Origin: Deltaproteobacteria bacterium
GTDB lineage: Bacteria > SAR324 > NAC60-12
Direction: 5' to 3'
Length of the DNA: 29,721 nucleotides
Assembly: GCA_038150265.1 (NCBI GenBank)
Contig: JAYOTF010000040.1
Coordinates: 1-29,721, forward strand
The notes beneath the pieces are model-generated. The model searched no databases and had not been told where the DNA came from. It was given only the letters and a program-made list of their open reading frames with translations. Below are positions 3 through 29,377 of the stretch, piece by piece. Numbering within the stretch: position 1 is the stretch's first letter; each line of letters starts with the position of its first letter. A program made the translations under genes and the position numbers.

Positions 3-422
3 TACACCCTCAGTGGGGTGGGAGGCCCCGTTGTGCGCCTGGTTCAGAGCCCGCCCGCCCGCTCCGGAAGGCCGTCCACAGCTTCTGTGGGAGCGGCGCT
101 GGAAGACGAAGAAGACGCCATCCGTGCCCTCCGGCAGGAGCAGCGTGAGCGGCTCCAGCAGGCGACATCCAGGGAGGAGCGCCAAGCGATCCGAAAGGAG
201 TACCGCAAGAAAATCAAGGCTCTGCGGCAGCAGCAGCGAGGGGCGTCTCCTCGTTCCAGGCTCCTGGCTTCCGAGCGCCAACAGCTCCGTCAGGCCCGCC
301 AGGCCCAGCTGCGCGAGGCGACTTCTCCGGAAGAGCGCCGGGCCATTCGTCGCGAGTTTCGTCAGAAGCTTCGGGAGGCGCGGAACCGCTCACGAGCCCG
401 TTCCGAGCTGCAGGGCACCTGA
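3..422 (+). CDS. 3' part of a hypothetical protein with a two-copy Arg/Glu/Gln-rich helical repeat tail (truncated at window edge)
   Basis: Frame is open from position 3 (YTLSGVGGPVVRL...) to TGA at 420-422; contains near-duplicate segments LRQEQRERLQQATSREERQAIRKEYRKKIK and LRQARQAQLREATSPEERRAIRREFRQKLR. Confidence 0.75.
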   Translation, partial: YTLSGVGGPVVRLVQSPPARSGRPSTASVGAALEDEEDAIRALRQEQRERLQQATSREERQAIRKEYRKKIKALRQQQRGASPRSRLLASERQQLRQARQAQLREATSPEERRAIRREFRQKLREARNRSRARSELQGT

Positions 423-512
423 GGCGGTTAGCAGCCCCAGATGTGCGGGTCGGTCGCGGTGAGTGGCGGGCGGTGCCAGAGCTTCGCTTCCCAGGAGGCG
501 TCCGGAGGTGAC

Positions 513-1070
513 TCAGTTCACCGGGATCTCCACAAGGTCTTCATCAAAGAGTCCGGTCTTCTCAGCGTCCGTGTGGCAGGCAACACAGTTGGCAGGGCTC
601 TTGATGGACTTGCGGTCAAAGACCCGATCCTCCAGCAAGTCATCGTGCTTGCGCTTCCAGTACCGGGTTTCCGAGATCCGGACCGGCGTGTCATTGGCCG
701 CCAGCTTGTCCAGGATCTTGACAGACACCTTGGACGGCGTCAGCTCGGCTGCATGCGCCGTGAGGTAGGTCCGGATTTCTGCAGCGGTTTGGTCATCCAG
801 CGCCAGGTCTTCTCCAAAGTGATTGGCCTGCTCCTGCATGAGGCGGTTCCAGGAGCGCTCGGGAAGCAGCCCGGGCAGCATGGCCCAGTGACACGCCCCA
901 CACTCCTGCTGAACCGTCTTGTTCTGAATCGTTGGCATCTCCTGGTCCATGAAGAGGGTGGTGAAGAACCCCGGGTCCTGGGAGTAGCGGTAGTCGTCCT
1001 GAGCCGAGGCTGAAGCCGCAGCATTGAGGAGCAGGAGCAGAGAAAGGGCAAAGGGAGAGACAACTTTCAT
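513..1070 (-). CDS. Diheme cytochrome c (DHC family), secreted
   Basis: ATG at 1070 gives a Sec signal (MKVVSPFALSLLLLLNAAASASA). Two CxxCH motifs (CGACH, CVACH) plus DHC-typical PGLLPERSW, NHFGED and RISETRYWKRKH. The ORF-track start at 1298 overlaps the upstream gene. Confidence 0.9.
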   Translation of the reverse strand: MKVVSPFALSLLLLLNAAASASAQDDYRYSQDPGFFTTLFMDQEMPTIQNKTVQQECGACHWAMLPGLLPERSWNRLMQEQANHFGEDLALDDQTAAEIRTYLTAHAAELTPSKVSVKILDKLAANDTPVRISETRYWKRKHDDLLEDRVFDRKSIKSPANCVACHTDAEKTGLFDEDLVEIPVN

Positions 1071-1072
1071 GA

Positions 1073-1705
1073 TCAGGTGGCAGAAAGGAGTTTTCGAGGG
1101 CTCAAGCGGGCCTGAAGTCGCAACCAGGCAGGACGCCGTTGGGCCAGGAAGCGGCGGGAAACCGGAAGCCGGAGGCTGAGTAAGAGAAGCAACAGGATAC
1201 TGTAAAAGGCACCTTTTTCCAATCCATCTTCCAGCAGGAACACATGGATCACTGCTGCCAGGGCGAGGACGTACACCACCTGATGCAGGCGCTTCCAACG
1301 CTTGCCGAGGCGCTTCATCCAGCCACGGGTGGAGGTGACGGCGAGCGGAACCATTCCCAGCAGGGCGCCCCAGGCCGCCCAGAGTGACGGATCCGTCAGG
1401 CTCTCCTTCCAGAGCCCGGGGAGGTCCCAGTGCTCTTCAAGGGCATAGAGCCCCAGGTGGAGGGCACTCAGGAAGAACGCATAGAGGCCGAGTGGCTTCT
1501 TGAGCCGCGGCAGGAAGCTCTTCCCGGTGAGGAGGAACAGCGGGGTCATGACCAGGCTGAGCAGCAGGAAGGTCATGGCTGCTTCCCCTGAGACGTGGGT
1601 CAGGATGTGCCCCCGGTCGGAGGTGGAGGCCACCCCAAGCTTGACGAACTGGAGGGCAAAGAAGAGGTGCACCACCGCTTCTGGGCTGAGGGACAGGCGT
1701 TTCAT
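1073..1705 (-). CDS. msrQ: MsrQ/YedZ-like ferric-reductase-family heme b membrane protein
   Basis: About 6 hydrophobic segments; LSLVMTP, LGLYAF, LAVTS, LGKRWKRLHQVVY and AVIH motifs with the conserved heme-ligating His residues of the YedZ/MsrQ family. Confidence 0.82.
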   Translation of the reverse strand: MKRLSLSPEAVVHLFFALQFVKLGVASTSDRGHILTHVSGEAAMTFLLLSLVMTPLFLLTGKSFLPRLKKPLGLYAFFLSALHLGLYALEEHWDLPGLWKESLTDPSLWAAWGALLGMVPLAVTSTRGWMKRLGKRWKRLHQVVYVLALAAVIHVFLLEDGLEKGAFYSILLLLLLSLRLPVSRRFLAQRRPAWLRLQARLSPRKLLSAT

Positions 1706-1827
1706 CAGGACCTTTCGGGCAGAGGAGAAGACGTTTCCAGACTGCCGCAGCTGGCACGCACCAGGGCGCTGGCGGCAAAAGCCGCAAAGAGGGGCAGGCG
1801 TGTTGGGTGAGGAAGGAACGTAAACAT
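1705..1827 (-). CDS. 40-aa small ORF translationally coupled to the msrQ-like gene
   Basis: ATG at 1827 preceded by AAAGGGG; reads MFTFLPHPTRLPLFAAFAASALVRASCGSLETSSPLPERS; its TGA overlaps the msrQ-like ATG (TGATG). Below the ORF-track size cut-off. Confidence 0.4.
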   Translation of the reverse strand: MFTFLPHPTRLPLFAAFAASALVRASCGSLETSSPLPERS

Positions 1828-1848
1828 GGGGACCCCTTTGGCTAGAGT

Positions 1849-1865
1849 GTCATTCATTTGATGAC
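1849..1865. promoter_or_regulatory. Inverted repeat GTCAT-N7-ATGAC, possible transcription-factor site
   Basis: Perfect 5-bp arms in the short AT-richer gap between the end of cobL and the start of the small ORF/msrQ/DHC unit. Confidence 0.3.
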
Positions 1866-1907
1866 TCCAGTCTACAGGGGCTTCCTTGCGCCTCTCTTGC
1901 GCGAACC

Positions 1908-3149
1908 TTACAACTTTGAAACGTTCGGCGCTTCCTTGAGGCAGCTGTACTGCGTGACGGGCATCAGCGCGCGCCAGCCCCGGTAGGGGCCCACGGGTTC
2001 AGCGCGGGCCAGGCTGAGGCGGGTCAACTCGCCACCCTGGGCGGCCTGCCACCCCAGCAGGACCTGTTCGCTTTCGAGGGTGACGGCGTTTGCCACCAGG
2101 CGGCCCCACGGTTTCAGGGCGTGCCACGAGGCGGACAGCACCGCTTCTGTCAGCCCACCGCCGATAAACACGGCATCCGGGTCTGGCAGGTGCGGCAGGC
2201 GCTCCTCAATGGCTCCCGAAACGACCTCCAGCCGCGTCCGGACGCCCAGGGCAACGGCGTTGCGCTCCAGCCACGCCAGCCGGTCGGGGTGTCGCTCCAC
2301 CGCAACGGCGTGGTTCCGGACATCCGACCGCAGCCACTCAATGGCCACCGAACCGCTCCCGGCTCCGAGATCCCAGAGCCGCTGCCCCGGAAGCGGCATC
2401 AGCTTGGCGAGCGTCGCGGCCCGGATCTCGCGTTTGGTGAGCTTGCCATCGTGCTCAAACGCATCATCCGGAAGCCCGGGCAGGCGCGGCAGCAGCACCG
2501 CGGTGGGTCCCGGCAGGCACTCCACTCCAATGACATTCAGCGACGCGCCTTCCGGATGGACCCAGGTTTCTGCCACTCCGGAGAAGCAGCGCTCCTGCGG
2601 GCCACCGAGGTGTTCCAGCACCGTCAGGCGGCTCGGGCCAAACCCCCGCGCAGTCAGCAGGGCGGCCACCTGCTGGGGGCTGGTCCCATTCCAGCTCAGG
2701 ATCAGCATCCGGACCTGAGGCTGAACGAAGGGGTGCAGCGTCTCCAGCGGACGCCCGTGAACCGTCAGCAGCTCCACCTCCGGAAGCGACCACCCGAGCC
2801 GCGAGCACGCCAGCGAGTACGCCGACGGCATGGGCAGGAACCGGACCTCCTCTGGCGCAAAGCCCTCCCGGAGCAGCTTGGAGCCGACGCCGTAGCAGAG
2901 CGGGTCTCCGGTGGCCAGCACCACGGCGCCTTCCCCAAACTCCCGGAGGCGAGGGAAGTCCTCTTCCATGCGCTTGGACCACGTGTACTGGGGAGCGGTC
3001 ACAAACTCCGGAACCATGCCGAGGTGCCGCGGGCTCCCAAAGATCACCCGTGCGTCCTTCAGCCGCTGCTGGGCTTCCAGTCCCATTCCGGACCACCCGT
3101 CTTCACCAATGCCCAGGACGCTGAGCCACGGGGCCCCAGCAGCACTCAT
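1908..3149 (-). CDS. cobL: Precorrin-6Y C5,15-methyltransferase (decarboxylating), fused CbiE/CbiT
   Basis: N-terminal VLGIGEDG, VVLATGDPLCYGVG (CbiE); GLPDDAFEHDGKLTKREIRA, LWDLGAGSGSVAIEW, DAVFIGGG, RLVANAVTLES (CbiT). Confidence 0.95.
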   Translation of the reverse strand: MSAAGAPWLSVLGIGEDGWSGMGLEAQQRLKDARVIFGSPRHLGMVPEFVTAPQYTWSKRMEEDFPRLREFGEGAVVLATGDPLCYGVGSKLLREGFAPEEVRFLPMPSAYSLACSRLGWSLPEVELLTVHGRPLETLHPFVQPQVRMLILSWNGTSPQQVAALLTARGFGPSRLTVLEHLGGPQERCFSGVAETWVHPEGASLNVIGVECLPGPTAVLLPRLPGLPDDAFEHDGKLTKREIRAATLAKLMPLPGQRLWDLGAGSGSVAIEWLRSDVRNHAVAVERHPDRLAWLERNAVALGVRTRLEVVSGAIEERLPHLPDPDAVFIGGGLTEAVLSASWHALKPWGRLVANAVTLESEQVLLGWQAAQGGELTRLSLARAEPVGPYRGWRALMPVTQYSCLKEAPNVSKL

Positions 3150-6355: not shown

Positions 6356-6489
6356 CAGGAACCGGCTGGGCAAAAGGCCGAGAAAGCCCGCGGGGGTGCT
6401 TTTGGCGCTTGGTCTCTGTTCCGACTTGTGCTAAGGTTGGCCCCGGATTCTATTTTTTTCAAAGAAGTTTCTCTAGATTAAGGTGCGGA

Positions 6490-6732: not shown

Positions 6733-6777
6733 TTCAGGCGACGTCTGCTCCTTCCGGACGTCTGCCCTGTCTTGCCT

Positions 6778-6814: not shown

Positions 6815-7118
6815 CAGCTCCGTTTGTTCGTCAGGTCCCCTTGGGTAACGAGGCGGAACCTGCTCCCGTCTGTCCCTCCTGAGCCACCTGCTGGGCCTCC
6901 CGTTTTTTCCGGATGCTTCCGGATTCCACCGCAGGAGGTCTCTACTGTATCGGGAAGCCCCGGAAGCAACAAGTGCGAGAAAAAAACGCTGGTTGGCGGG
7001 CGGGCGTGGTATCCTGCTGGTGCGGAAGTTCCGGAAAAAAATTCCCGGGTCTCTGGCCCAACCCTGTGAAATCCGCTAACATAATCACTCCCTACATCAA
7101 CCCCTTTCTCTGCGGTCC

Positions 7119-7787
7119 ATGAGTGAGAGGCACTCTCAGGTCATTGAAGAATATCTGCTAACGCTGTACCAACTGCGCGGCGCCGAAGAGGCGGGGCTCA
7201 AGGCGGTGACCCTGGCGGAGCGGCTCAAGGTCAGCCCGCCGACGGTGCACTCCACGCTGTCTCGGATGCAACGCGATGGGCTGGTCCGGATGGGCGAGGC
7301 GAAGGCGTGGGAGCTGACGAAAGACGGCCTGAAGGAAGCAGAGGACATTGCCTACCGGCACAACCTGGCCGAACACTTCCTCTGCCACACCCTGGGCATT
7401 CCGTGGTACGAGGTTCACAAGCATGCCCATCAGCTGGAGCATGCGCTGACGCCACTGGTGGTGCAGAAGCTGACCGAGTTTTTGGGACGTCCGGAGTTCT
7501 GCCCGCACGGCACCCCCATGCCCGGAAGCTCCCTTCCGGAGAACGCCTTCCCCCTGCATGAGGCCCAGCCTGAGACCACGGTTGAAATTGCCATGGTGTC
7601 TGAGCAGCTCGAAGACTCCGAGGACCTCCTCAAGGTGCTGCACCGCGACTACGTCATTCCGGGTGAGGTGCACCGAGTCGTGAGCCGAGAGGACGTCATG
7701 CAGGCCCTCACCCTGGAGTCTCGCCATGGGCAGATCTCCCTCCCCTTCCACATTGCCGAGCACATCGTCGTCGTCCCGGTCGCCTAG
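7119..7787 (+). CDS. DtxR/MntR-family metal-dependent transcriptional regulator with C-terminal FeoA/SH3-like domain
   Basis: EEYLLTLY, LAERLKVSPPTV (HTH), RHNLAEHFL..LG, HKHAHQLEH, LGRPEFCPHGTPMP. Confidence 0.92.
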   Translation: MSERHSQVIEEYLLTLYQLRGAEEAGLKAVTLAERLKVSPPTVHSTLSRMQRDGLVRMGEAKAWELTKDGLKEAEDIAYRHNLAEHFLCHTLGIPWYEVHKHAHQLEHALTPLVVQKLTEFLGRPEFCPHGTPMPGSSLPENAFPLHEAQPETTVEIAMVSEQLEDSEDLLKVLHRDYVIPGEVHRVVSREDVMQALTLESRHGQISLPFHIAEHIVVVPVA

Positions 7788-7790
7788 TTG

Positions 7791-9482
7791 ATGTCCCACC
7801 GTTCGTTTCGCTGGAGCGCGCTCCTGGCTTTGCTGGCCCTGCTGTTCAGCCTTCCTTTTCTGGCCCTGATTGGACTGGCGGTTCAGGCGGAGCAGACGGT
7901 GTGGGGGCACCTGTGGCAAACGGTGATGCCCGGGTACCTGTTCAACTCCCTCCACCTGGCCCTGCTGGTTGGGCTGGGAACGCTGCTGCTGGGAGTGGGA
8001 AGCGGCTGGCTGGTCGCCATGTACGACTTCCCTGGGCGCCGCTGGTTTGAGTGGGCCCTGCTGCTTCCGCTGGCCTACCCGGGTTACATTGTGGCCATGG
8101 TCTACATGGAGCTGCTGGATTACGCTGGGCCGGTGCAACGCACGCTCCGGGGCTGGTTTGGCTGGAAGACGCCCCGAGACTACTGGTTCCCGGAGGTGGC
8201 CTCGGTGGGAGGCGCAGGAGTGATGCTGACGCTGGTGCTCTACCCCTACGTGTACCTGCTCGCCCGGACGGCGTTTCAGCAACAAGCCGGCGTGCTGCTG
8301 GAGGCGAGCCGCATGCTCGGACGCTCGCGCCGCAGCAGCTTCTGGCGCGTGGGCCTGCCTCTGGCCCGCCCTGCCATCATTGTGGGCGTTTCGCTGGTCC
8401 TGATGGAGACGCTGGCTGATTTTGGCACCGTGCAGCTGTTTGCGGTCCAGACGTTCACCACCGGCATCTACCACACCTGGTTTGGCACCAACAACCCCTC
8501 TGGTGCCGCCCAGCTCGCCCTCTCCCTTCTGGCCTGTGTGGTCCTGCTGGTGGCCCTGGAACGGCACTCCCGGAAGCTGCAAAAGAGCCAGTCCCGGAAC
8601 CTCGTGGTCCGGCCGTTTCCCCGTCGGGTGCCTGCGCGTCCGAAGCAGTGGCTGGCCGTGCTGGCGTGCCTGGCTCCGCTGAGCCTGGGGTTCCTGCTGC
8701 CCAGTGCGATGCTGCTGATGTGGACCTGGCAGTCCTTTGCCCGCGTCCACCTTGACGCATTTGCCGAAGATGCGCTGCACAGCCTCTTGCTGGCGGCGTT
8801 TGCCGCCGGATGCGCCGTGCTGCTGGGGCTCTTCCTCAGCTACGGCCTGCGCCTCAAGACCCAACGGTCGCTGCGGTGGGTGGTGCGGTTGGTGAGCCTG
8901 GGGTATGCCATTCCGGGGCCTGTGGTGGCGCTGGGTGTGCTGCTGCCCTTTTCGTGGCTGGACCGCGAGTGGCTGAATCCGCAGCTGGAGGCGTGGCTGG
9001 GCTGGAAGGCCACCTACCTGCTGAGTGGCACCGTGCTGGTGCTGCTGTTCGCCTACCTGGTCCGCTTCCTGTCCCTTGCGTTCGGGACCGTGGAGGCCGG
9101 GCTGAATGGAATCACTCCGGGGATGGATGAAGCGAGCCGCATGCTGGGACGGAATTCACGCCAGACGCTGAGGGAAATCCACTTGCCCCTGCTCCGACGC
9201 AGCATCCTGACCGCGTCGCTGCTGGTGTTTGTGGATGTCATGAAGGAGCTTCCGGCCACGCTGATGCTCCGTCCGTTCAACTTTGGCACCCTGGCGACCC
9301 GAGCCTTTGGGTATGCCGCAGAAGAGCGCCTGCAGCAGGCGTCTCTGTGGTGCCTGACGATTGTGGCCTTTGGGCTCGTTCCCCTCGTTTTGACCAACTG
9401 GAAGATGCGGTCGGCTTCCGAGCGAGCCACCGCGCCTCCCTCCCACCGCCTGAGTCCGGTGGCTGACCCCGCAGAGAGCTGA
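7791..9482 (+). CDS. fbpB: Fe3+-type ABC transporter permease (FbpB/FutB-like, two permease domains)
   Basis: FPGRRWFEWALLLPLAYPGY, LYPYVYLLAR, two EAA loops (EASRMLG), METLADFG, DVMKELPATLMLRPFNFGTLA. Start 7791 (or TTG 7788). Confidence 0.9.
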   Translation: MSHRSFRWSALLALLALLFSLPFLALIGLAVQAEQTVWGHLWQTVMPGYLFNSLHLALLVGLGTLLLGVGSGWLVAMYDFPGRRWFEWALLLPLAYPGYIVAMVYMELLDYAGPVQRTLRGWFGWKTPRDYWFPEVASVGGAGVMLTLVLYPYVYLLARTAFQQQAGVLLEASRMLGRSRRSSFWRVGLPLARPAIIVGVSLVLMETLADFGTVQLFAVQTFTTGIYHTWFGTNNPSGAAQLALSLLACVVLLVALERHSRKLQKSQSRNLVVRPFPRRVPARPKQWLAVLACLAPLSLGFLLPSAMLLMWTWQSFARVHLDAFAEDALHSLLLAAFAAGCAVLLGLFLSYGLRLKTQRSLRWVVRLVSLGYAIPGPVVALGVLLPFSWLDREWLNPQLEAWLGWKATYLLSGTVLVLLFAYLVRFLSLAFGTVEAGLNGITPGMDEASRMLGRNSRQTLREIHLPLLRRSILTASLLVFVDVMKELPATLMLRPFNFGTLATRAFGYAAEERLQQASLWCLTIVAFGLVPLVLTNWKMRSASERATAPPSHRLSPVADPAES

Positions 9483-9483
9483 C

Positions 9484-10542
9484 ATGATCCGTTGCGAATC
9501 CCTATTCAAGTCCTATGGCGCTGTTCAGGCGGTCCAGGGGGTCAACTTTGAGGTGGCGTCTCAGGAATTCATTGCCATCCTGGGGCCCTCCGGGTGTGGC
9601 AAGTCGACGCTGCTCCGCCTGGTCGCAGGATTGGAGGAGCCGGATGCCGGGCACCTGTACCTGCGGGGTCAGGAAATCTCTGGGCCACGTCAGTTGGTGC
9701 CTCCGGAGAACCGCCGGTTTGGGATGGTGTTTCAGGACTTTGCCCTCTTTCCGCACATGTCGGTTTCCGCCAACATCGCCTACGGCCTCAGCGGGGCGCG
9801 CTCCGAAAAGCAGGCGCGGGTGCAGGAGCTGCTGACCCTCGTGGGCCTGCCGCATCTGGCAGACAAGATGCCTCACATGATCAGCGGCGGTGAGCAGCAG
9901 CGCATTGCCGTGGCCCGGGCCCTTGCTCCCCGACCGCAGCTGATCCTGATGGATGAGCCCTTCAGCAACCTCGATTACCAGCTTCGGGTGCAGCTCCGGC
10001 GAGACATCCGGAGGATCCTCAAGCAGGAAGGCGTGGCCGCCTTGCTGGTGACCCACGACCAGACGGAGGCGATTACGTTTTCGGACCGGGTCTTCCTCAT
10101 GTACGCGGGAGAGTTGGTGCAGACCGGAGTTCCGGAGGTGGTGTACCGGCACCCGAAGAACCTGTGGGCCGCCAGCTTTGTTGGCGAGGCGAACTTCCTG
10201 GAGGTCTCCCATGCCTCCGGAAGTCCGGAAACGTCGCTGGGACCACTGGGCGCCTCCGGAGTCGGAAGCCTGGCCCGACGCCTCATGGTGCGTCCGGAGG
10301 AGATCCGCCTCGAGGTGCCGAGCCGTGCGGAAGACGCCCGGGCGGTCGTCCGGGAGGTCGAGTTCAGCGGGCCCGTGAAGGTGGTGGAGATTGAGATGAA
10401 GGATGGCCAGCGCCTCAGTGTGCACACGTCTCCCCAGAGCAACTGGAATCCCGGAGAAGGCGTCACACCGGTGCTGGACCGCTACCTGCTGTTTGATGCG
10501 TCCGGAACCCTGCTGGAGTCGCCAACCGGAGCAGCGGGCTAG
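9484..10542 (+). CDS. fbpC: Fe3+/PotA-type ABC transporter ATP-binding protein
   Basis: Walker [44 protein letters not shown]-terminal TOBE-like region. Confidence 0.9.
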
Positions 10543-13583: not shown

Positions 13584-13766
13584 TCAGTTGAGCTTGTTAG
13601 CGCCTGCAATTTCCTGGAGCTTTTGACGCCGCTGCTGAAAGGCCTGCTGCGCCCGACGTTGGTCCAGGAGGTTTTTGCCGTAAGCGAGGAGCTTGAGGAG
13701 CTGCAGCACGCCCACTCCTGAAAGAATCCACACCGTGTTGGCCTCCAACCACTCCGGCGAGATCAT
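13584..13766 (-). CDS. Small hypothetical membrane protein (60 aa)
   Basis: ATGA overlap with the hisC stop; one hydrophobic helix followed by a Gln/Arg-rich tail. Confidence 0.6.
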   Translation of the reverse strand: MISPEWLEANTVWILSGVGVLQLLKLLAYGKNLLDQRRAQQAFQQRRQKLQEIAGANKLN

Positions 13767-14836
13767 GTCACCACCAGCTGAGACACTTGCAGGTACTCCC
13801 GGAAGATTTCGATGAAGCGCTCCACCTCCGGGAGCATGCGGACGTTGAGGCGGAAGGTGTGGGCAATGGGGGGACGCATCGGACGAACCAGCACCCCGTG
13901 TTCCTTGAGGAACCGGATTGCATCCGGAGCATCCGGAGGTTCCACCAGCATGAAGTTGGCCCCGCCTTGGTAGAAGCGAACTTCCTCGTCCTCAAAAAAC
14001 TGCTCCAGCGCAGGCTTGGCTTCTTCCATCAGGTGCTGCACCCGCTGCCGAATCACCGGCAGGGCGTTCAGGGCCGCGTGTCCAGCGACCACGGAAAGCA
14101 TGTTCACGTCATAAGGCCCCCGGATTTTGGACAGCTCGGCCAAAAATTCCGGTTGGGCCACCACGTACCCCAGCCGGAGCCCCGGAAGGGCAAAGGCCTT
14201 GGAGAAGGTCCGGAGCACCACCAGGTTCGGGAAACGCTTCAGGAGGGGGACCGCGGTGAGTCCGTTGAACTCGAAGTAGGCCTCATCCACGAGCACAGCG
14301 CAGTCGGGAAACTGGGTGAGCAGGTGCTCCACTGCCTCAAGTGGAACAACCGTGCCGGTCGGGTTGTTGGGGCTGATGACAACGATCAGGCGGGTTCGGG
14401 CATCGACCGCGTCCTGCACGGCTTCCAGAGGAAACGCGAAGGTGTCGAGCGGAAATTGAGGCGCGCGGTGTTCAGCGCCGAGCGTTTGGGCCACCTGGGC
14501 AAACATGGCAAAGCCCGGAACCGGCATCACAAAGTTGTCCCCGGGCTCCAGCAGGGCGCGCATCACCAACTCAATGCCCTGATCCGATCCGTTGGTGATC
14601 AGCACCTGCTCTTCCGGAACCCCAACGTAGGCGCCAAGGTCCTGCAGAAAGGTGCCGTAGCTGGGGTAAAGGTGCAGGCGCTCCTGACTCAGAAAGTGCT
14701 GAAGGGCCTCTGTGACGCCGGGCGGTGGGGGCAGCGGGGACTCGTTGAAGTCCATCAGCAGGTACTGGTCCGGGTTGCGTCCCTCAAGAGGGGGCGTGTA
14801 GTGCCCCATCTGGGCAATGGCCTTCCGTACACGCAT
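13763..14836 (-). CDS. hisC: Histidinol-phosphate aminotransferase
   Basis: DFNESP, TNGSDQGI, SPNNPTG, VDEAYFEF, LRTFSKAFALPGLRLGY (PLP lysine), ANFMLV. Confidence 0.85.
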   Translation of the reverse strand: MRVRKAIAQMGHYTPPLEGRNPDQYLLMDFNESPLPPPPGVTEALQHFLSQERLHLYPSYGTFLQDLGAYVGVPEEQVLITNGSDQGIELVMRALLEPGDNFVMPVPGFAMFAQVAQTLGAEHRAPQFPLDTFAFPLEAVQDAVDARTRLIVVISPNNPTGTVVPLEAVEHLLTQFPDCAVLVDEAYFEFNGLTAVPLLKRFPNLVVLRTFSKAFALPGLRLGYVVAQPEFLAELSKIRGPYDVNMLSVVAGHAALNALPVIRQRVQHLMEEAKPALEQFFEDEEVRFYQGGANFMLVEPPDAPDAIRFLKEHGVLVRPMRPPIAHTFRLNVRMLPEVERFIEIFREYLQVSQLVVT

Positions 14837-17937: not shown

Positions 17938-19890
17938 ATGGAGCAGCAACTGGTGGAACCTACAGCCGCGCACATCCGGGAAGTGCTGCAGGTGGGGGAA
18001 CGGCACAGGGGGCAACGAGACGCGGTGATTGTGGAATCGTGGCGCCGGTGCCTGCTGGAACACCACCTGGACCCCCGAGCGCGTCAGGAGGCGAACATCT
18101 TGCCGCAGCAGCAGCTCCGTGAACACCAGGAGCGTCTGGAAAGTTTCCTCCACACGGCACGCTACGGAGCCGAGACCCTCTACCGCCAGGTGACGGGGTT
18201 GGGCTACGTCCTCCTGCTCACCGATGAGCAGGGCATCACCGTTGATTTTCTGGGAGACCCGACCCTGGGGAACGAGCTCGACGGTTCCGGGCTGCTTCTG
18301 GGAGCCGACTGGAGTGAGGCCCACGCCGGGACCTGTGCCGTCGGGACCTGCCTGCGGACAGAAGCCCCGCTGACGGTGCACCTGACCGACCACTTCTTCC
18401 TGCCTTACACGTCCCTCACCTGCACCGCGGCGCCGGTGTTCAACCCGTATGGACGCCTGCTGGCGGTCCTGACCATTGCTGCCGCAAAGGCTCCCCAGCC
18501 CAAGAGCAGCCAGCACCTGGCGCTCAAGCTGGTGCAGCACCATGCCCACCGCATTGAAAAGGCAAACCTTTACAAGGAATTCGGACGTGAGTGGATCATC
18601 AAGCTCGGGTCATCCGAAGAGTTTGCTGACGTGGATCCCGAATACCTGCTGGCCCTGGATCCGTCTGGAGCCATCCTTGGCTTCAACCACTCCATGCAGC
18701 AGCTTCTGATGCAGGAGGCACCGGTTCCCGATTCGCATGACCTGCTGGGGCGGCACTTTGAGGACTTCTTCGACTGCCCCGTGAGCAAGCTTCCGGAGTT
18801 TGTCCTCTCGCGCCCGACGGGGCAACGGGTCCTCCAGACGCAGGGGCAGGCCCGGACGCTCTTTGCGCAGGCCATTCCTCCGCAGCAGCACTCCCCCCTC
18901 CCCCGGAAGCCCAGCGCGGTGGTGGCACCGATGCCTCCGGCACTGGCGGAGCTGACCGGAGGGGACCCGCTGCTGGAGCGGCACCTGACGAAGGCGGAGC
19001 GGCTGGTCAATGCCAACGTCAGCATCCTCCTCCTGGGGGAGACCGGCACCGGCAAGGAGCGGTTTGCCAAGGCCCTGCACGAGTCCAGCTCTCGTGCCAA
19101 TGCCCCCTTTGTCGCGGTCAACTGTGCGGCCATTCCGGAGTCGCTCATTGAAAGCGAACTCTTCGGGTACGTTCCCGGAACCTTCACCGGCGCGCAGTCT
19201 CGGGGCAAGCGGGGGCTGATCCTGGAAGCCAACGGCGGCACGCTGTTTCTGGACGAAATCGGAGACATGCCCCTGTCGTTGCAGGCTCGCTTGCTTCGGG
19301 TGCTCGCAGAGCGGGAGGTGCTGCCTCTGGGCGCCGTCGCTCCCCTGCCCGTGGACCTGCGGGTGATCTCGGCAACGCATCAGGACCTTGTGGAGAAGAT
19401 GGCCCGGGGCACGTTCCGGGACGACCTGTATTACCGGCTCAATGGCGCCGTCTTCACGCTCCCGCCGCTCCGGGACCGCCGGGACTTCGAGTGGCTGGTG
19501 CGGCGGCTGCTTCAGCAGCAAGTGGCTCCTGCGCCTCAGGTCAGCCCAGAGGCGTTGCGCCTGCTGCGTCAGCACCCCTGGCCGGGGAACATCCGGGAGC
19601 TGCGGAACGTCCTCGAGTTTGCAGGAGCCGTTTGTCACAACCAGTGGATCTTGCCGCAGGACCTTCCGGAACAGTTTCACCCGTCCGGACTGGTGCCTCC
19701 GCTTCTGCTGCACCTGTCTTCTGAGGTGCTGCCCTCGCCGGTGGATCCGGACCCTGCCCGGCGGTTGGAAGCCGCGCTGATCCGGAACCAGTGGAACATC
19801 AGCAAGACCACCCGGGAGCTGGGGCTCAGCCGCGCCACCATCTACCGGCACATGGAACGCTTCGGCATTGTTCCTCCCAACCGGCGCTAG
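17938..19890 (+). CDS. acoR: Sigma54-dependent activator, AcoR family (GAF-AAA+-Fis HTH)
   Basis: ATG after AGGAGGAGG; ESWRRC, WSEAHAGTCAVGT (AcoR GAF), GETGTGKE, ESELFGYVPGTFTGA, LFLDEIGDM, FRDDLYYRL, WPGNIREL, WNISKTTRELGLSRATIYR. Confidence 0.92.
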   Translation: MEQQLVEPTAAHIREVLQVGERHRGQRDAVIVESWRRCLLEHHLDPRARQEANILPQQQLREHQERLESFLHTARYGAETLYRQVTGLGYVLLLTDEQGITVDFLGDPTLGNELDGSGLLLGADWSEAHAGTCAVGTCLRTEAPLTVHLTDHFFLPYTSLTCTAAPVFNPYGRLLAVLTIAAAKAPQPKSSQHLALKLVQHHAHRIEKANLYKEFGREWIIKLGSSEEFADVDPEYLLALDPSGAILGFNHSMQQLLMQEAPVPDSHDLLGRHFEDFFDCPVSKLPEFVLSRPTGQRVLQTQGQARTLFAQAIPPQQHSPLPRKPSAVVAPMPPALAELTGGDPLLERHLTKAERLVNANVSILLLGETGTGKERFAKALHESSSRANAPFVAVNCAAIPESLIESELFGYVPGTFTGAQSRGKRGLILEANGGTLFLDEIGDMPLSLQARLLRVLAEREVLPLGAVAPLPVDLRVISATHQDLVEKMARGTFRDDLYYRLNGAVFTLPPLRDRRDFEWLVRRLLQQQVAPAPQVSPEALRLLRQHPWPGNIRELRNVLEFAGAVCHNQWILPQDLPEQFHPSGLVPPLLLHLSSEVLPSPVDPDPARRLEAALIRNQWNISKTTRELGLSRATIYRHMERFGIVPPNRR

Positions 19891-22522: not shown

Positions 22523-22555
22523 CCCTGTCGCTTTTCTTTTTTGGAGGATGAAACC

Positions 22556-24875: not shown

Positions 24876-24929
24876 TTTTCCCTGACCCGGCCTCCCCACC
24901 GGTGTTCGGGAAGGCGAAAGTGACTCATC

Positions 24930-25730: not shown

Positions 25731-26423
25731 GAGGTTCAGGCTGATTCCCGTGATCCAATCGGCGTCGGGACTGGCGAGGAAGAAGAGCGCGGCGGCGATT
25801 TCGTCCGGTGTTCCCAGCCGTCCTCGGAGTCCGGACTGCTCCAGCCGTTTCAAGATGGGCTCCTCAAACCGAGTCACCATGGGGGTCTCCACTGGCCCCG
25901 GAGAGATCGCATTGACGCGAATGCCCGCCTCTGCCCACTCCCGGGCCAGGTACCGTACCAGATTTTCCACCCCGGCCTTGGCCACGGCGTAGGCGGCTCC
26001 GGAGAGCGCACTTCCGCCATTGTGGGCGTTGGTGGAGCCGATGAAGAGCGCGGAAGCGTACGGAGAGGTGAGGAGCGGCTGAGCGTGCTTGGCAATGAGG
26101 AAGCAGGAGGTGAGGTTCACCTCCAGCAGGGAGTGCCAGTCGGCCAGTGAGGTGTGGGCCAGGTCTCCGGTCTGGGTCTTGCCGACGCAGTGCACCAGCG
26201 TCTGCAGCGAGCCGTGCTGGTCCTGAATTTCAGCGCAGAGCTGAACCAGGGCCGCCTCGTCGGTGCAATCGAGGGAGTGGTAGTGGGTGCAGGCATCCGG
26301 ACCCGTGGGAGACAGGTCGGCGCCAATGACGCAGGCGCCGGACTGGTGAAAGCGGCGGGCCACCGCGGAGCCGATGCCCCCTGCGGCTCCAGTGATCAAG
26401 ACCGTGGAAGGGGCAGTGGACAT
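25707..26423 (-). CDS. Short-chain dehydrogenase/reductase (SDR)
   Basis: TGAAGGIG, EVNLTS, catalytic YAVAK, IRVNAISPGPVET, ITGISLNLSGG. Confidence 0.92.
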   Translation of the reverse strand: MSTAPSTVLITGAAGGIGSAVARRFHQSGACVIGADLSPTGPDACTHYHSLDCTDEAALVQLCAEIQDQHGSLQTLVHCVGKTQTGDLAHTSLADWHSLLEVNLTSCFLIAKHAQPLLTSPYASALFIGSTNAHNGGSALSGAAYAVAKAGVENLVRYLAREWAEAGIRVNAISPGPVETPMVTRFEEPILKRLEQSGLRGRLGTPDEIAAALFFLASPDADWITGISLNLSGGLVLR

Positions 26424-26441
26424 GCGGACTCCTGAGTGGGG

Positions 26442-27488
26442 TTAGAGGGCCTGAGCCGAAAGCAGCACCGAGGCCGGAAGCCCCTGTGGGCTCATCGCCT
26501 CAGGAATGGGAGTGTAGAGCGGATGCGGCACTCCGTGTGCGAAGCAGACGGCTTCCGGATCCGCGAGGATGGTTTCATCGCCAAAGGCCAACTCGATCTT
26601 GGCCCGACGCTCGGTCACCTCCAGGGGCTCAAACCCGATCTTGATGACCTCGCCTTCGAGGCGGGCCAGGAAGAACTGCGGGTCCTTGTCCAGCGAAAGG
26701 GCCTGAGGCGCCTCCGGAAGGAGGAGGCGTTCCTCCTGAGCCATCTCGAGGTCCACCCGCGTCACCTGCTGCATGTGCTCATCCCCAAGGACCAGAAAGC
26801 GATCATCGCCGGAAAAGACGAGGAATCGGGGTGCCTGGTCCAGTGGAAGCGCATAGCGCAGGGTTCCGGAGGGCAACTCGTAGACCCGTAGCGGGTCCGG
26901 CGCCTCTGAGACCAGCACCGCCAGCAGCGAGGCCTCGTTGTTGAGGGCAAAGTTGAGAACGGGGAGCCCGATGTTCAGGGTGAACCGTTCCTGCCCAGAG
27001 AGGTCGAAGGCGACAATGTGCCGAGACGCTTCCTGGTACCGGAGGCGCAGCTCCGTCCGGACCCGGTTGGGGTCCTGCGAGGTGAGCTTTCCGGTGTACG
27101 TGAGTTGGACATCGGCGGCCCCCTGGTTTTCCCAATAGAGGCAGTAGATGTCCTTGCGGGGCGGCTGGACGGTGCCCTGACCGGTTTGGGCGTCTGGCAG
27201 GCGGGTGCTGTAGCCCACCTCCTGCCCAAGGTGGTAGTGGACGTCAAAGTACACCGGCCCGGACGCCTGAAACTGGTAATCCAGTTGCTGGTCCGGATGA
27301 ACCGTGAAGCAGTTCTCTGCTCCCTGGCCCGCCTGCAGTTGATGCACGCCTGCCTGCTCCGGCCTCATGTCCTGCTTGGGGTCTGCAGGCCCAGCCGTCC
27401 AGGCCAACACGACCCCCACCGCCCCGGCGATCAACAGTCCTACCGCTTGAAGCATTTTCCCCCGTGGCTCACGAGATGGTTGCGTCAT
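26442..27488 (-). CDS. Uncharacterised exported protein: Cys/His-containing beta-sandwich-like domain plus partial beta-propeller
   Basis: N-terminal hydrophobic helix; ENCF...VYFDVHYH...YCLYWEN; propeller-like blades (FALNNEASLLAV, LVFSGDDRFLVL); C-terminal CFAHGVPHP. Confidence 0.75.
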   Translation of the reverse strand: MTQPSREPRGKMLQAVGLLIAGAVGVVLAWTAGPADPKQDMRPEQAGVHQLQAGQGAENCFTVHPDQQLDYQFQASGPVYFDVHYHLGQEVGYSTRLPDAQTGQGTVQPPRKDIYCLYWENQGAADVQLTYTGKLTSQDPNRVRTELRLRYQEASRHIVAFDLSGQERFTLNIGLPVLNFALNNEASLLAVLVSEAPDPLRVYELPSGTLRYALPLDQAPRFLVFSGDDRFLVLGDEHMQQVTRVDLEMAQEERLLLPEAPQALSLDKDPQFFLARLEGEVIKIGFEPLEVTERRAKIELAFGDETILADPEAVCFAHGVPHPLYTPIPEAMSPQGLPASVLLSAQAL

Positions 27489-27490
27489 GG

Positions 27491-28027
27491 CTAGTTCTTC
27501 ATGGAACCGCCCCCATGATGCATTTGGTGCATCTGGTCATGATCCATGGGGGTGGCGTTCATCATCACCGGAACCTGCACCGTGATTTCCGGGGCATGGC
27601 GGAAGCGCAGGGTGACCGGGTAGGTCTCTCCGGGCTGCGGTGCCTGCTTGAGCTTCATGAACATCACATGAAAGCCACCGGGTTTGAGCTCCGCCATCCC
27701 TTGAGCCGGGACCTCAATGGCGTCCACGGGGGCCATGTGCATCATGCCGTCCTTTTCGGTGACATTGTGGATTTCCGTCACTTCTGCCAGCGGAGAGCTG
27801 GCGGAGAGGAGGGCATCTGCCTGAGCCTCGTAGTTCATCAGGTGCATGTAGGCGGCACTGCTGGAGGCATTCGGCGGTGTGGCCCGGATCCAGGCCTCAT
27901 GGGCCTCCACGCCAGAGCCGTCCTGGGACTGGGCTCCTGCAGGAGGAATGAAGCCGAGGGTGAGGGCCACGAGCAGGGCCAGGGTCAGTTTGGAAAAATG
28001 AGTCATCATTGGAAATCTCAAAATCAT
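27491..28027 (-). CDS. Periplasmic copper chaperone PCu(A)C with Met/His-rich tail
   Basis: AWIRATPP, AAYMHL, EIH-x10-M...ELKPGGFHVMF (Hx10Mx21HxM Cu site), PVTLRF; tail MDHDQMHQMHH. True start may be 28009. Confidence 0.93.
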   Translation of the reverse strand: MILRFPMMTHFSKLTLALLVALTLGFIPPAGAQSQDGSGVEAHEAWIRATPPNASSSAAYMHLMNYEAQADALLSASSPLAEVTEIHNVTEKDGMMHMAPVDAIEVPAQGMAELKPGGFHVMFMKLKQAPQPGETYPVTLRFRHAPEITVQVPVMMNATPMDHDQMHQMHHGGGSMKN

Positions 28028-28032
28028 GAGGG

Positions 28033-28599
28033 TCAGAGGTCTTCCGCCAGGGTCGTGATGTCGTCCGCCATTTCCTCTGGCTCGGCATCCTGTCGGTACA
28101 GGCCCCGGAGTTCCCCCTCTCCATCGAGGAGGTAGACGTATCCGGAGTGGGCGACGAGGTAGCCGGCAGCGGTTTCGGTGCGGGTGTCCTTGGCAAAGAA
28201 GGCGCCGTATTGTCGGGCGACGGCCTTGAGTTCGTCGAGCGAGCCCGTCAGGCCGATGAAGCGAGGATGAAAGTAGGTCACGTATCCCTGCAGCTGTTCG
28301 GGGGTGTCGCGCTCGGGATCAACCGAAATGAAGAGGGGCTGCACCTGAGCCTCCACGTCCGGATCCAGCTCCTTGAGGGCCTGCTGCACCCGCACCATGG
28401 TGGTGGGGCAGATGTCCGGACACGCGGTGTACCCAAAGAAGAGGATCACCACCTGTCCCCGGAACTCGCTGAGCGAGACCGGACGGTCCAGAGAACTGGG
28501 GAGAGTGAAGTCTCCTCCCATGCTCCCGTATTCCTTCAGTTCAGCCTGAGCCGAGCTGGTCAGAAACAGGAATGCCAGCATGACGATGAATGTACGCAT
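28033..28599 (-). CDS. SCO1/SenC-family copper chaperone
   Basis: Signal peptide; GGDFTL, FFGYTACPDICP (CxxxC), FISVDPERDTP, GLTGS, YLVAHS (Cu-ligand His). Confidence 0.95.
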   Translation of the reverse strand: MRTFIVMLAFLFLTSSAQAELKEYGSMGGDFTLPSSLDRPVSLSEFRGQVVILFFGYTACPDICPTTMVRVQQALKELDPDVEAQVQPLFISVDPERDTPEQLQGYVTYFHPRFIGLTGSLDELKAVARQYGAFFAKDTRTETAAGYLVAHSGYVYLLDGEGELRGLYRQDAEPEEMADDITTLAEDL

Positions 28600-28601
28600 G
28601 A

Positions 28602-28671
28602 AACCCTCGTCGAGTCAGAGTGGTCCGGAGGCTTCTCCGGAAATCAGGATGATACGCAACAGAAGAGGGTC
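28602..28671 (-). promoter_or_regulatory. Predicted SD-sequestering mRNA structure between the leader ORF and SCO
   Basis: mRNA GACCCUCUUC (28671-28662, overlapping the leader stop) can pair 9/10 with GACGAGGGUU (28611-28602, SCO RBS); it encloses a perfect hairpin UCCGGAG-AAGC-CUCCGGA (28641-28624). Confidence 0.55.
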
Positions 28672-29023
28672 AGGCGGGGGGACCTCGGGAAGGAGGAATG
28701 GCAAAGAAGGAAGTGAGAAACGGGACGGCCTGAGGCGGCTGGGTGAGCCAGGCTCTGGCGTCTGGTAGGCGCAGGGTCAGGGCATGAGGGAGCAGGGAGC
28801 ACCCAGCAGAGTGGCCCTGGTGCAGGAGCACGCATTCGGTGTCTTGCTCCACCTGCTGCTGGTGAGACTGGTGGTGCGACTCGGCGTTGGCATGACGATG
28901 GGTGTGTGCGCCCGAGGCTCCAATCGGAAGGTGGTGGACCCAGTGAGGGGGCAAGGCCGCAGTCCAGTGCAGCAGCGCGACAATCAGCAGCTGGGCAACA
29001 GAGGAAATGCGAGGTGGGAGCAT
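28670..29023 (-). CDS. DUF2946-like His-rich exported leader protein ending in RGPP (candidate arrest peptide)
   Basis: N-terminal hydrophobic segment, His-rich middle, ECVLLH, Pro-rich linker, C-terminal PPSRGPPA-stop; 70 nt upstream of SCO. Confidence 0.7.
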   Translation of the reverse strand: MLPPRISSVAQLLIVALLHWTAALPPHWVHHLPIGASGAHTHRHANAESHHQSHQQQVEQDTECVLLHQGHSAGCSLLPHALTLRLPDARAWLTQPPQAVPFLTSFFAIPPSRGPPA

Positions 29024-29149
29024 GCCGGCTCAGACGGAGTGGATCAGCAAAAACGGTCCCCCACTCTATCGGAGCCACCGGCAACCCGCAAGCAAAGAGC
29101 CTTGCCCGGAGAGTGTCCCAGGCGGCTCTGTGCTGCCTCTCAGCCTGGG

Positions 29150-29377
29150 TCAGGAGTACTCGATGAACAGCTCTTCCGGAAGCTCAGACCAACGCGAGTG
29201 CACGTTCACTTTCCTGGGGCCGCCGTCTGCCGGGTCCATCTGAACCCGCTCGATGTTCCCTCCACGGTTCAGGTACTCCTGCACTGCAGCGTCGACTTCT
29301 TCTTGCCGAACCTCCGGAACCTTGGTTCCAGAAAAAACGACAGGGCGTTGATTGAAGGTGGTTGCGTACTTTCTCAT
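29150..29377 (-). CDS. Small protein (75 aa) with a SutA-like RNA-polymerase-binding motif
   Basis: ATG at 29377 after AAGGA; EEVDAAVQEYLNRGGNIERV resembles the Pseudomonas SutA core (AMEEFLxRGGKVQEI). Confidence 0.6.
   Translation of the reverse strand: MRKYATTFNQRPVVFSGTKVPEVRQEEVDAAVQEYLNRGGNIERVQMDPADGGPRKVNVHSRWSELPEELFIEYS

Follow-up and report, generated by a model that had tools for sequence, protein, structure and literature searches.

The cyanobacterial palindrome HIP1 (GCGATCGC) is described together with the alternate HIPs GGCGCC, rCCGGy and GCsGC in PMC4390886, PMC5861425 and PMC13756078, the last of which presents the reason for HIP1 hyper-abundance as having been open for three decades. 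In a second system, SeqA favors GATC pairs that share a face of the helix and requires hemimethylation by Dam (PMC2691817, available portion). CdbA of Myxococcus xanthus is a nucleoid protein, a ribbon-helix-helix (RHH) tetramer, that occupies hundreds of chromosomal sites, bends DNA, and has two DNA-binding regions one helical turn apart, its site being a loose direct repeat with that spacing (PMC7156744, available portion). The word analyzed here is TCCGGA, from a genome (G000) assigned to SAR324 by protein matches. In the DNA uptake sequences of the Neisseriaceae and Pasteurellaceae, too, a single short word is repeated thousands of times and fitted into coding sequence, with an effect on dipeptides; these words are 9-12 bp long and non-palindromic, and we know of no helical phasing among them. 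TCCGGA resembles them in its thousands of copies of a short word, accommodated by coding sequence, and in affecting dipeptide usage.

TCCGGA is HIP-like, but it is not HIP1. As far as the available HIP1 texts go, both are short palindromes found genome-wide, in all frames and between genes, restricted to a lineage and rarer in highly expressed genes. The word and the phylum are different, the enrichment is about 8-fold instead of 15- to 300-fold, yet TCCGGA has more copies per kb, and a cognate m5C methyltransferase is absent. The period reported for HIP1 is 10-90 kb (bins of at least 25 bp; the term "helical" does not appear in the available part of that paper), whereas that of TCCGGA is 10.5 bp with a lineage-specific sign. 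Like the Dam/SeqA system, TCCGGA favors same-face pairs in G000, in its relative G047, and in genera g2 and g11, but the preference is reversed in genus g12 and the sister species G046, an avoidance with no Dam/SeqA counterpart in the available portion of PMC2691817; moreover, the only conserved amino-methyltransferase of the clade is dispensable. CdbA is a precedent for a small RHH chromosome binder, the SAR324 RHH protein discussed below being only a candidate for TCCGGA, and in contrast to the CdbA site TCCGGA is an exact palindrome with pairs below 27 bp depleted and a peak at three turns or more. Searches of CC-licensed PMC papers and bioRxiv listed no earlier account of TCCGGA, either as the signature of a genome or within SAR324, and the supplements of PMC9516812 included no SAR324 or TCCGGA match.

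TCCGGA in the window and in the genome

The window, i.e. the whole stretch of 29,721 nucleotides that was analyzed, has a G+C content of 63.1% and includes 93 exact copies of TCCGGA (63..29318, Table 1) where base composition predicts 10.0, in close agreement with the original prediction of roughly 90 against about 10. Observed/expected (O/E) ratios in the window are 9.3 (order 0), 4.2 (order 2) and 1.28 (maximal order). Called genes hold 82 of the copies, in all three frames of both strands (5/7/20 on the plus and 11/15/24 on the minus strand), and 11 lie outside genes, so that the occurrence in different frames, in genes on both strands and in intergenic DNA was as predicted. The four clusters that had been named (6908-6923, 10215-10268, 13923-13937 and 28624-28641) contain 2, 3, 2 and 2 copies. 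The pair 10224/10255 is separated by 31 bp (three turns) and the pair 19684/19746 by 62 bp (six turns). Since contigs from other public runs, among the matches listed, carry long pieces of the same window with about 1 difference per 100, the window is not an assembly artifact. There were no Rfam matches in the window, and no RNA data set carrying it among the matches listed.

Table 1. Positions of TCCGGA copies, clusters and TCCGGA-free gaps in the window
Feature	Coordinates	Location or content
TCCGGA starts, part 1	63, 326, 501, 677, 770, 2237, 2315, 2467, 2551, 2577, 2708, 2779, 3007, 3087, 3635, 3729, 4223, 4372, 4454, 4986	
TCCGGA starts, part 2	5508, 6161, 6220, 6599, 6753, 6908, 6918, 7030, 7285, 7490, 7535, 9702, 10007, 10131, 10216, 10224, 10255, 10293, 10501	
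TCCGGA starts, part 3	11423, 11690, 11830, 12722, 13281, 13923, 13932, 14209, 14613, 15062, 15088, 15409, 15477, 15621, 16386, 16533, 16591, 17416, 17838	
TCCGGA starts, part 4	18792, 19134, 19665, 19684, 19746, 19781, 20405, 20517, 20565, 21011, 21045, 22483, 22708, 23137, 23470, 23843, 24065, 24126, 24700	
TCCGGA starts, part 5	25262, 25830, 25998, 26296, 26554, 26713, 26865, 27056, 27292, 28141, 28358, 28415, 28624, 28636, 29175, 29313	
Two copies, 10 bp apart	6908..6923	Intergenic, upstream of DtxR/MntR-like regulator gene (7119-7787 +)
Four copies	10216..10298	3' part of ABC ATPase gene (9484-10542 +)
Two copies, 9 bp apart	13923..13937	Inside hisC-like gene (13763-14836 -)
Four copies	19665..19786	3' end of sigma-54 activator gene (17938-19890 +)
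Two copies, 12 bp apart	28624..28641	Intergenic
TCCGGA-free gap	776..2236	6 permissive places, 0 used
Longest TCCGGA-free gap in the window	7541..9701	Over ABC permease gene; 7 permissive places, 0 used

The window, with 3.1 copies per kb, is a local sample from a genome that carries 9,711 in all and in which TCCGGA is the commonest hexamer, and the enrichment thus extends to the rest of the genome as had been proposed. Genome-wide O/E is 8.67 at order 0 and 3.95 at order 2; at maximal order it is 1.22, still the top z, with 1.05 and 1.00 in two relatives. The predicted excess stands at orders 0 and 2, while the maximal-order value comes near, in form, to the ratio close to 1 at which the original prediction had placed its refutation. 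This low value results from the 5-mers TCCGG and CCGGA being inflated too, the 5' T and the 3' A acting multiplicatively. The enrichment survives the codon-shuffled control in all three frames (4.05, 3.21 and 5.04; 4.16 overall): 8,929 of 21,080 permissive places are filled (about 42%), compared with about 10% under codon shuffling. Between genes, 643 copies in 347 kb correspond to O/E values of 6.3 (order 0) and 3.06 (order 2). GCCGGC and ACCGGT are depleted in the genome. The list of most enriched dipeptides includes Pro-Glu, Ser-Gly and Pro-Asp, and Pro-Glu was counted 192 against 123 times in 94 orthologue pairs aligned with non-enriched kin. A longer extragenic repeat of the REP/BIME type was rejected: of the intergenic 12-mers that surround the word the most frequent has 7 occurrences, no 20-mer has more than two, and the density of TCCGGA is 2.86 per kb overall but only 1.85 per kb in intergenic DNA.

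Local scarcity had been suggested to mark recently acquired DNA, an idea that the gap lengths do not bear out, as they match random spacing genome-wide. The second gap runs from 7535 to 9702, where a copy is present, and does not reach 10000. Gaps of at least 1467 bp number 122 of 9,624 (133 expected under random spacing) and those of at least 2167 bp number 22 (17 expected), with a gap CV of 0.98. Both gaps in the window are ordinary for random spacing, i.e. chance.

Helical phasing of pairs and its sign in relatives

Pair distances in this genome have a period of 10.5-10.6 bp, whose amplitude drops from 0.24 (12-150 bp) to 0.11 (150-300 bp); the phasing reaches about 300 bp and is gone beyond about 450 bp. 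TCCGGA was the most strongly phased hexamer among the abundant words tested, and its amplitude was 0.245, while 200 protein-preserving permutations averaged 0.069 and reached at most 0.13. The phasing was equal in all three distance classes modulo 3 and for pairs not located in one gene. The phasing belongs to the exact word, as only one of nine one-mismatch classes, CCCGGA, was phased, and weakly. Affinity looks graded, in the order TCCGGA >> CCCGGA > others. Unfilled permissive places lacked the phasing (amplitude 0.05, other phase), and the filling of a permissive place depends on its helical angle to a neighbor copy within about 100-300 bp. Pairs at 11-26 bp were depleted (186 observed, 339 expected).

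No A-tract phasing was seen, and after masking of TCCGGA no dinucleotide exceeded an amplitude of 0.016. A histone or nucleosome-like positioning signal was discarded, there being no match to the histone fold PF00808 in G000 and no phased AA/TT dinucleotides. The 43 pairs of the window alone showed no phasing (mean cosine -0.05), and for lags beyond 1 kb the autocorrelation stayed within about 2 standard errors (1-kb bins, contigs of 80-214 kb only); given this and the random large-scale spacing, there is no sign of even chromosome coverage.

The enrichment is common to a SAR324 clade, and the characterization of TCCGGA as a HIP-like motif holds, being genome-wide, frame-independent, also intergenic and resistant to codon controls. 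Phasing is restricted to four genera that form a single GyrB clade (97/97) and represent a single origin (n=1). Whole-turn/half-turn pair counts show a same-face excess in G000 (230/116), G047 (126/83), g2 (1318/344 in 18 genomes) and g11 (114/49), and whole-turn avoidance in G046 (43/120) and g12 (30/307), the opposite sign thus occurring in relatives with orthologous proteins; G046 and G047 were sampled at 400 kb, too small for a full distance spectrum. Pairs three turns apart (peak about 31 bp) are in 4-9x excess in g2, as measured in four 3-bp windows. There was no phasing in g3, g6 and g7 taken together (44/45) or across 11 f7 genomes of moderate enrichment (119/113), and phases that had seemed mixed within f7 were not so on repeat. 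TCCGGA copies turn over fast: G047 keeps 411 of 731 sites compared with about 30% expected from codon-level conservation (four-fold identity 0.525, synonymous sites near saturation), a retention also predicted by an equilibrium bias with an occupancy of about 0.4.

A putative reader protein and the alternatives

We favor, at a rough probability of 0.55, weak selection for the sites of a putative abundant, two-fold symmetric (dimeric) DNA-binding protein that contacts pairs of sites, chromosome-wide, in one SAR324 clade. TCCGGA would be the preferred site of this protein, and weak selection per site (log-odds about 2) would keep the sites plentiful. Same-face pairs would be favored where tight cooperative complexes help, as in g2 and less strongly in G000, G047 and g11, and avoided where such complexes hinder or the geometry of the protein has changed, as in g12 and G046. 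Its likely job would be nucleoid organization, by bending or bridging; this function was among those originally proposed for the word, and it gains support from the 10.5-bp phasing, which the original prediction could not see. More tentatively, TCCGGA may represent a methylation-independent, sequence-encoded chromatin code in which one small nucleoid protein acts on about 10,000 exact sites, the geometry of its oligomer setting the phase rule and the sign flipping as the protein changes.

A search for the reader in part of the proteome, by filters over about 3,000 called genes set against about 800 kb of g12 DNA, yielded candidates only. A conserved RHH protein of 59-95 residues is a weak candidate. 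Its core is almost invariant and its fold RHH-like (CopG at an rmsd of 0.6 A across 35 residues, E 0.46), while the linker to the C-terminal helix varies by lineage: where same-face pairs are favored it is absent or has 17-18 residues, and where they are avoided it has 19-26 and is proline-rich. We consider it doubtful that this family-wide protein (G000 C1:134123-134374) is the reader; the 37 of 44 family genomes that encode it extend to neutral g10 and g5 as well as to non-enriched G033 and G034. HU/IHF, encoded by 45 of 45 family genomes (three copies in G000) with no additional paralogue in the clade, and a tyrosine recombinase beside tatC (40 of 44, including non-enriched genomes) were rejected, and the distributions of these two, of the RHH protein and of two methyltransferases do not match the clade. 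The Bse634I/Cfr10I and EcoRII-C families had no match in any of five genomes, nor in the control genomes, which makes their absence uninformative.

A non-selective ratchet, in which a two-site repair, nicking or conversion enzyme makes TCCGGA out of near-sites, or protects it, depending on the helical angle to a neighboring site, with abundance and phasing as by-products, is somewhat unlikely. It fits the high turnover and an occupancy nearly flat across gene classes (0.37-0.44), lower only in ribosomal-protein-like genes (46/178, 0.26), a dip compatible with a ratchet because codon selection there would oppose a weak bias. Elhai's model accounts for alternate HIPs without selection (PMC4390886, available portion), but this version requires an m5C methyltransferase, which G000 lacks and of which a single clade genome out of 27 has a full-length match. 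No single one-off neighbor word was found to be drained across frames, as a source for TCCGGA would be, and the three-turn excess of g2 with the opposite sign in sisters would need an enzyme with two geometries.

Molecular drive, in which TCCGGA would act as a signal for DNA uptake or recombination (a role that has been proposed for HIP1) with a two-headed receptor imposing the phasing, is unlikely. Uptake drive does yield frame-independent, genome-wide enrichment. ComEC was present in five of five family genomes tested, but one of these is the non-enriched G050, and 10 of 14 control genomes have it too. Transformation is increased by HIP1, which is also correlated with uptake proteins; the effect is methylation-dependent (PMC13756078), while the SAR324 clade is devoid of a conserved methyltransferase. 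It is hard to see how a receptor that favors sites would lead g12 and G046 to avoid same-face pairs.

The link to an orphan methyltransferase in the original prediction did not survive. No C5 methyltransferase (PF00145) was detected in G000, which is 97.8% complete, and a beta-class methyltransferase beside a retron-like RT was discarded, its full-length orthologue being found only in genus g1. It is very unlikely that the conserved orphan amino-methyltransferase (G000 C51:<248-1387) methylates TCCGGA, with the mark used by a SeqA-like reader or by mismatch repair as in Dam/SeqA or HIP1. This enzyme matches a type II DNA methyltransferase model (E 1e-35), although a fold search is compatible with a DNA or a tRNA methyltransferase, has no restriction enzyme alongside, and is shared by 32 of the 44 family genomes; its N-terminal tail is long and basic in enriched genera (110-300+ residues) and mostly short elsewhere, and G034, in which the enrichment has been lost, lacks the gene as well. 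On the other hand, neutral g10 and depleted G002 have the enzyme, and none of the 19 f7 genomes does. Its clean deletion in G020 and G036, where the flanking genes are adjacent, rules out this alpha-class enzyme as a necessary factor: both keep an O/E of about 7 and show the strongest three-turn pairing (5.9x and 9.2x), and in the deletion check none of the five genomes tested had an N6/N4 family match. Three of three marine "Deltaproteobacteria" MAGs, which may not be TCCGGA-rich SAR324, had no methylated motif, two of them with a methyltransferase (PMC8919816). The correlation between the methyltransferase tail and enrichment amounts to one evolutionary event.

The reading in which codon usage, amino-acid composition or the periodicity of alpha-helices (3.5 residues equal 10.5 bp) gives rise to the pattern as a side effect is already refuted, for although maximal-order O/E is only 1.0-1.2, Pro-Glu, Ser-Gly and Pro-Asp rank high and protein-preserving permutations still give an amplitude of 0.07, the enrichment survives synonymous shuffling and exists between genes, and the phasing sits in synonymous choice with its sign reversed in relatives whose proteins are orthologous.

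TCCGGA can be considered a case outside the cyanobacteria, in an abundant marine lineage, with no methyltransferase to blame, and it adds a geometric signature, a 10.5-bp phase rule with a peak near 31 bp in one genus and reversed in others. The pair-distance test is applicable to HIP1 and other genome signature words. The mixed phase signs of the clade make it a natural comparative series for finding the reader protein and, if selection for such a protein is the true explanation, bacterial chromosomes can bear a nucleosome-like rotational code made from one exact word.

Abundance of TCCGGA and its controls

From position 63 to position 29318 the window contains 93 exact copies of the hexamer TCCGGA, where a GC content of 63.1% would lead one to expect 10.0; 82 lie within called genes, on both strands and in all frames, and 11 outside called genes. 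The excess that the original prediction had claimed for both strands, different reading frames and intergenic DNA was borne out. The gene content is unremarkable: cobalamin synthesis, a DtxR-like regulator, an ABC transporter, hisC, gcvP, a sigma-54 activator and an acetoin/pyruvate-dehydrogenase-like set, and no Rfam matches (e.g. to a cobalamin riboswitch) were found in the window. Two local gaps, for which recent acquisition or mere amino-acid composition had been considered, do exist, but their lengths are ordinary for the source genome, G000, in which 122 of 9,624 gaps are at least 1467 bp long (133 expected) and 22 at least 2167 bp (17 expected). These two gaps include just 6 and 7 permissive places, i.e. 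positions where the encoded protein allows the word.

Features of the window and of contigs (C) of the source genome
Feature	Coordinates	Strand	Remark
cbiE/T, cobH, cbiX-like chelatase, cobU, cbiB	window:1908-6355	-	single run
small RNA polymerase omega-like gene	window:12226-12453	-	just under Pfam cut-off
small SutA-like gene	window:29150-29377	-	just under Pfam cut-off
recA	C1:96230-97020		looks split solely through a 10-N scaffold gap
83-residue protein	C1:134123-134374		near gyrB
3,459-aa ORF	C34:78-10457		within one of the genome's most TCCGGA-poor stretches (11-13 per 10 kb)
retron-like reverse transcriptase	C45:40-4562		935-aa ORF, long N-terminal extension, best PADLOC model RT_XIII; coordinates given for the run with the beta-class methyltransferase and the 311-aa protein
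orphan amino-methyltransferase, alpha-arranged	C51:<248-1387		order-wide
solitary tyrosine recombinase	C68:3869-4840		adjoins tatC-like gene

TCCGGA is the commonest hexamer of the G000 assembly (3.39 Mb, 87 contigs, 97.8% complete), with 9,711 copies or 2.86 per kb. The observed/expected ratios (O/E) under Markov models of orders 0 to 4 are 8.67, 7.57, 3.95, 2.39 and 1.22. The excess over Markov expectation is thus clear at the lower orders and small at the maximal one, at which samples of two relatives, G062 and the sister species G046, gave 1.00 and 1.05. These two values mean that the 5' T and the 3' A of the word are multiplicative, which may reflect the two half-sites of a dimer. A self-trained model called 2,993 genes, of which 2,844 scored well and were free of N; these were compared with 8 synonymous shuffles, and the enrichment, 4.05, 3.21 and 5.04 in the three frames, was independent of frame. 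The word fills 42% of the permissive places (8,929/21,080) vs about 10% in the shuffles, an odds ratio near 6.5. In intergenic DNA the O/E comes to 6.3 at order 0 and to 3.06 at order 2. The enrichment spans the whole genome and withstands both controls.

The specificity is graded, since CCCGGA (2.26), ACCGGA (1.62) and GCCGGA (1.40) are also above expectation at order 0 and CCCGGG, GCCGGC and ACCGGT are each at about 0.67. No longer repeat was found around TCCGGA, and the intergenic flank favours R, G, C. Ribosomal-protein-like genes have 46 of 178 places filled, a reduced occupancy that is also seen close to start codons. In 94 aligned orthologues, Pro-Glu, Pro-Asp and Ser-Gly occur 192, 112 and 190 times in G000 vs 123, 82 and 165 in non-enriched kin. 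Among other palindromes, CTAG is very low in G000 (order-0 O/E 0.05), those containing TA are likewise low, and GAGCTC, CCGCGG and CGGCCG are depleted across the genome.

Helical pairing of neighbouring copies across the phylum

Distances between copies in G000 peak at 31, 41-42, 51-52, 62-63, 72, 84 and 93-95 bp, a period of 10.5-10.6 bp with an amplitude of 0.24 at 12-150 bp, 0.11 at 150-300 bp and none past about 450 bp. In 200 permutations of the filled permissive places the amplitude averaged 0.069 and reached at most 0.13, vs 0.245 observed, and unfilled permissive places showed no mutual phase. Close pairs (11-26 bp) numbered 186 vs 339 in the permutations; a permissive place 12-16 bp from a site is filled with a chance of 0.10-0.19, and this chance is 0.52-0.56 at 42, 52 and 62 bp vs 0.32-0.35 at 34, 46 and 58 bp. 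The phasing is equal across distance classes modulo 3 and in 363 pairs not sharing one gene. Among nine classes of one-mismatch words only CCCGGA was phased (0.08), and no A-tract phasing signal was seen. The window alone, with 43 pairs and a mean cosine of -0.05, is too small to make phasing visible.

When pairs were counted across whole genomes, at distances of 30-32 plus 41-43 bp for whole turns and of 36-38 plus 46-48 bp for half turns, the sign of the rule proved specific to the lineage. Whole-turn pairs prevail in G000 (230/116), its relative G047 (126/83) and the genera g2 (1318/344 in 18 genomes) and g11 (114/49 in 3 genomes). The ratio is reversed in G046 (43/120) and in genus g12 (30/307 in 3 genomes). 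It is balanced in genera g3, g6 and g7 taken together (44/45 in 4 genomes) and in 11 enriched genomes of family f7 (119/113). Pairs 30-32 bp apart are 1.8-9.2 times as frequent as under random pairing in the 13 g2 genomes computed, a set that does not include every one of G023, G024, G033, G034, G037 (very few pairs) and G022 (doubtful size). In g12 and G046 the whole-turn pairs are at 0-0.38 and the half-turn pairs at 1.0-1.8 times random pairing, and the apparent anti-phase is therefore mainly an avoidance of the same face. Over 800 kb of g12 the period is 10.55 bp, with an amplitude of 0.98 at 20-65 bp that is lost towards 100 bp or so; partners of the form CCCGGA are phased as well (0.47); G058 and G059 were individually non-significant (p 0.08 and 0.4). 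As a fixed one-sided scaffold would yield in-phase pairs only, we infer that the helical rule acts between pairs of sites.

The word was counted in all 88 genomes of the phylum, and GC was taken from one sample of at most 20 kb each in 40 of them. At order 0, g1 and g12 reach an O/E of about 7.5-9, as do G020 and G035, the g2 genomes with strong enrichment that were sampled. The ratio is about 3-3.5 in g11, 2.3-4 in several genera of f7 as well as in g3 and g6, and near 1 in g4, g8 and most of family f2; the single sample of g10 (G057) gave 0.4. It falls to 0.02-0.3 in G002, G005, G064, G065, G067, G068, G081 and G083-G087. Avoidance can be strong (15 copies in the 3.1 Mb of G087); some avoiding genomes are without any CCGG, and G085 and G086 avoid the word without CCGG loss. 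The small AT-rich genome G066 has CCGG enriched 3.7-fold and GGCC almost missing in a 20-kb sample. Homologues of a G000 protein carry the name "SAR324 cluster bacterium". The family comprises 45 genomes, and a GyrB tree built from 29 of them, covering neither g6 nor g9 and leaving out G026 as partial, splits g1, g12, g11 and g2 from g3, g4, g5, g7, g8 and g10 with support 97/97. Phasing, of either sign, is confined to the first of these two groups. The trait can be lost, as G033 is nested inside g2 with an O/E of 1.3.

Site turnover and methyltransferases

G000 and G047 were compared over 347 aligned genes (89% amino-acid identity, four-fold-site identity 0.525). Where the peptide context is unchanged, 411 of 731 sites are kept, vs about 25-37% expected per frame; a comparable excess of retention was found in G046 and, for two of three frames, in G062. 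TCCGGA sites are renewed rather than inherited in place. This turnover fits selection and biased repair alike, and a repair ratchet acting on two sites is a possible, if rather improbable, source of the pattern. A drive through DNA uptake, for which the presence of ComEC in all five genomes tested speaks, appears less probable still.

That the word serves as a methylation mark is improbable, and the methyltransferase link suggested earlier did not hold. As for METHYLTRANSFERASES, G000 lacks any C5 enzyme, and of 27 genomes of the clade a single one has it at full length. G000 has two N4/N6 enzymes. One, adjoining the retron-like reverse transcriptase, has a full orthologue in g1 only; downstream of the reverse transcriptase, this beta-class enzyme is followed by a 311-aa protein without family, both being common to g1 and not found in g2, g11 or g12. 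The other is a solitary, alpha-arranged enzyme that matches a type II model and occurs in 32/44 genomes of family f1, 18/19 of f2 and 0/19 of f7. Its N-terminal tail in the enriched clade is long and basic; in g1, g2, g12 and probably g11 it spans 110 to over 300 residues, is Arg/Asp/Glu/Pro-rich or Lys-rich and includes a short conserved basic motif. In G020, G036 and G034 the gene is missing from its locus, and its neighbours lie 146, 133 and 232 bp from each other. A search of these three and of G031 and G033 (51-87% complete) turned up no member of the N6/N4 family. Both G020 and G036 are still enriched and show three-turn pairing at its strongest, which rejects this enzyme as a requirement: the pattern is independent of the conserved methyltransferase. 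The enzyme may have been lost recently in G020 and G036 and the signal may linger, but their GyrB distance is close to the one that separates G047 from G000, a span in which roughly half of the sites turn over. PMC8919816 describes three marine "Deltaproteobacteria" MAGs, which may not be of this clade, without a methylated motif. After the shuffles, an origin as a mere by-product of coding hardly deserves consideration.

Candidate reader proteins and known systems

No histone fold was found in G000, and HU and IHF form a standard set. Filters for soluble basic proteins pointed to the tyrosine recombinase and the 83-residue protein. The recombinase, present in 40/44 family genomes at 52-69% identity and not found in f2, is possibly a family-specific chromosome dimer resolvase. 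The 83-residue protein has RHH_1/ParG as Atlas neighbours; its model (mean pLDDT 74) superimposes on CopG with an rmsd of 0.6 A over 35 residues, at weak E-values, suggesting a ribbon-helix-helix (RHH)-like fold. It occurs in 37/44 family genomes, non-enriched ones included, with an almost invariant core and a variable linker to the C-terminal helix (30 sequences). The linker has 17-18 residues in the same-face lineages G000, G047 and g11, the C-terminal helix is missing in g2, and G046 and g12 have a proline-rich linker of 19-26 residues. This match between linker and sign amounts to one or two events and may be due to chance. The gene lies 7-11 kb from gyrB in several genomes, and a conserved word upstream of it matches the sigma-28 promoter consensus and would serve the divergent gene. 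CdbA (PMC7156744) is a precedent for such a protein organising a nucleoid.

TCCGGA resembles HIP1 in abundance and SeqA/GATC in geometry, but on account of the word and of the methyltransferase it belongs to neither system; PMC5861425 gives a period of 10-90 kb for HIP1. No account of TCCGGA as a genome signature was found in openly licensed papers and preprints. The reading that we favour, at a probability of roughly 0.55, is that a dimeric protein would bind TCCGGA and would contact a neighbour on the same helical face, and that weak selection would shape the number and the geometry of the sites. The pattern itself is real and genome-wide, a highly-iterated-palindrome phenomenon that in these bacteria comes with a helical pair rule.
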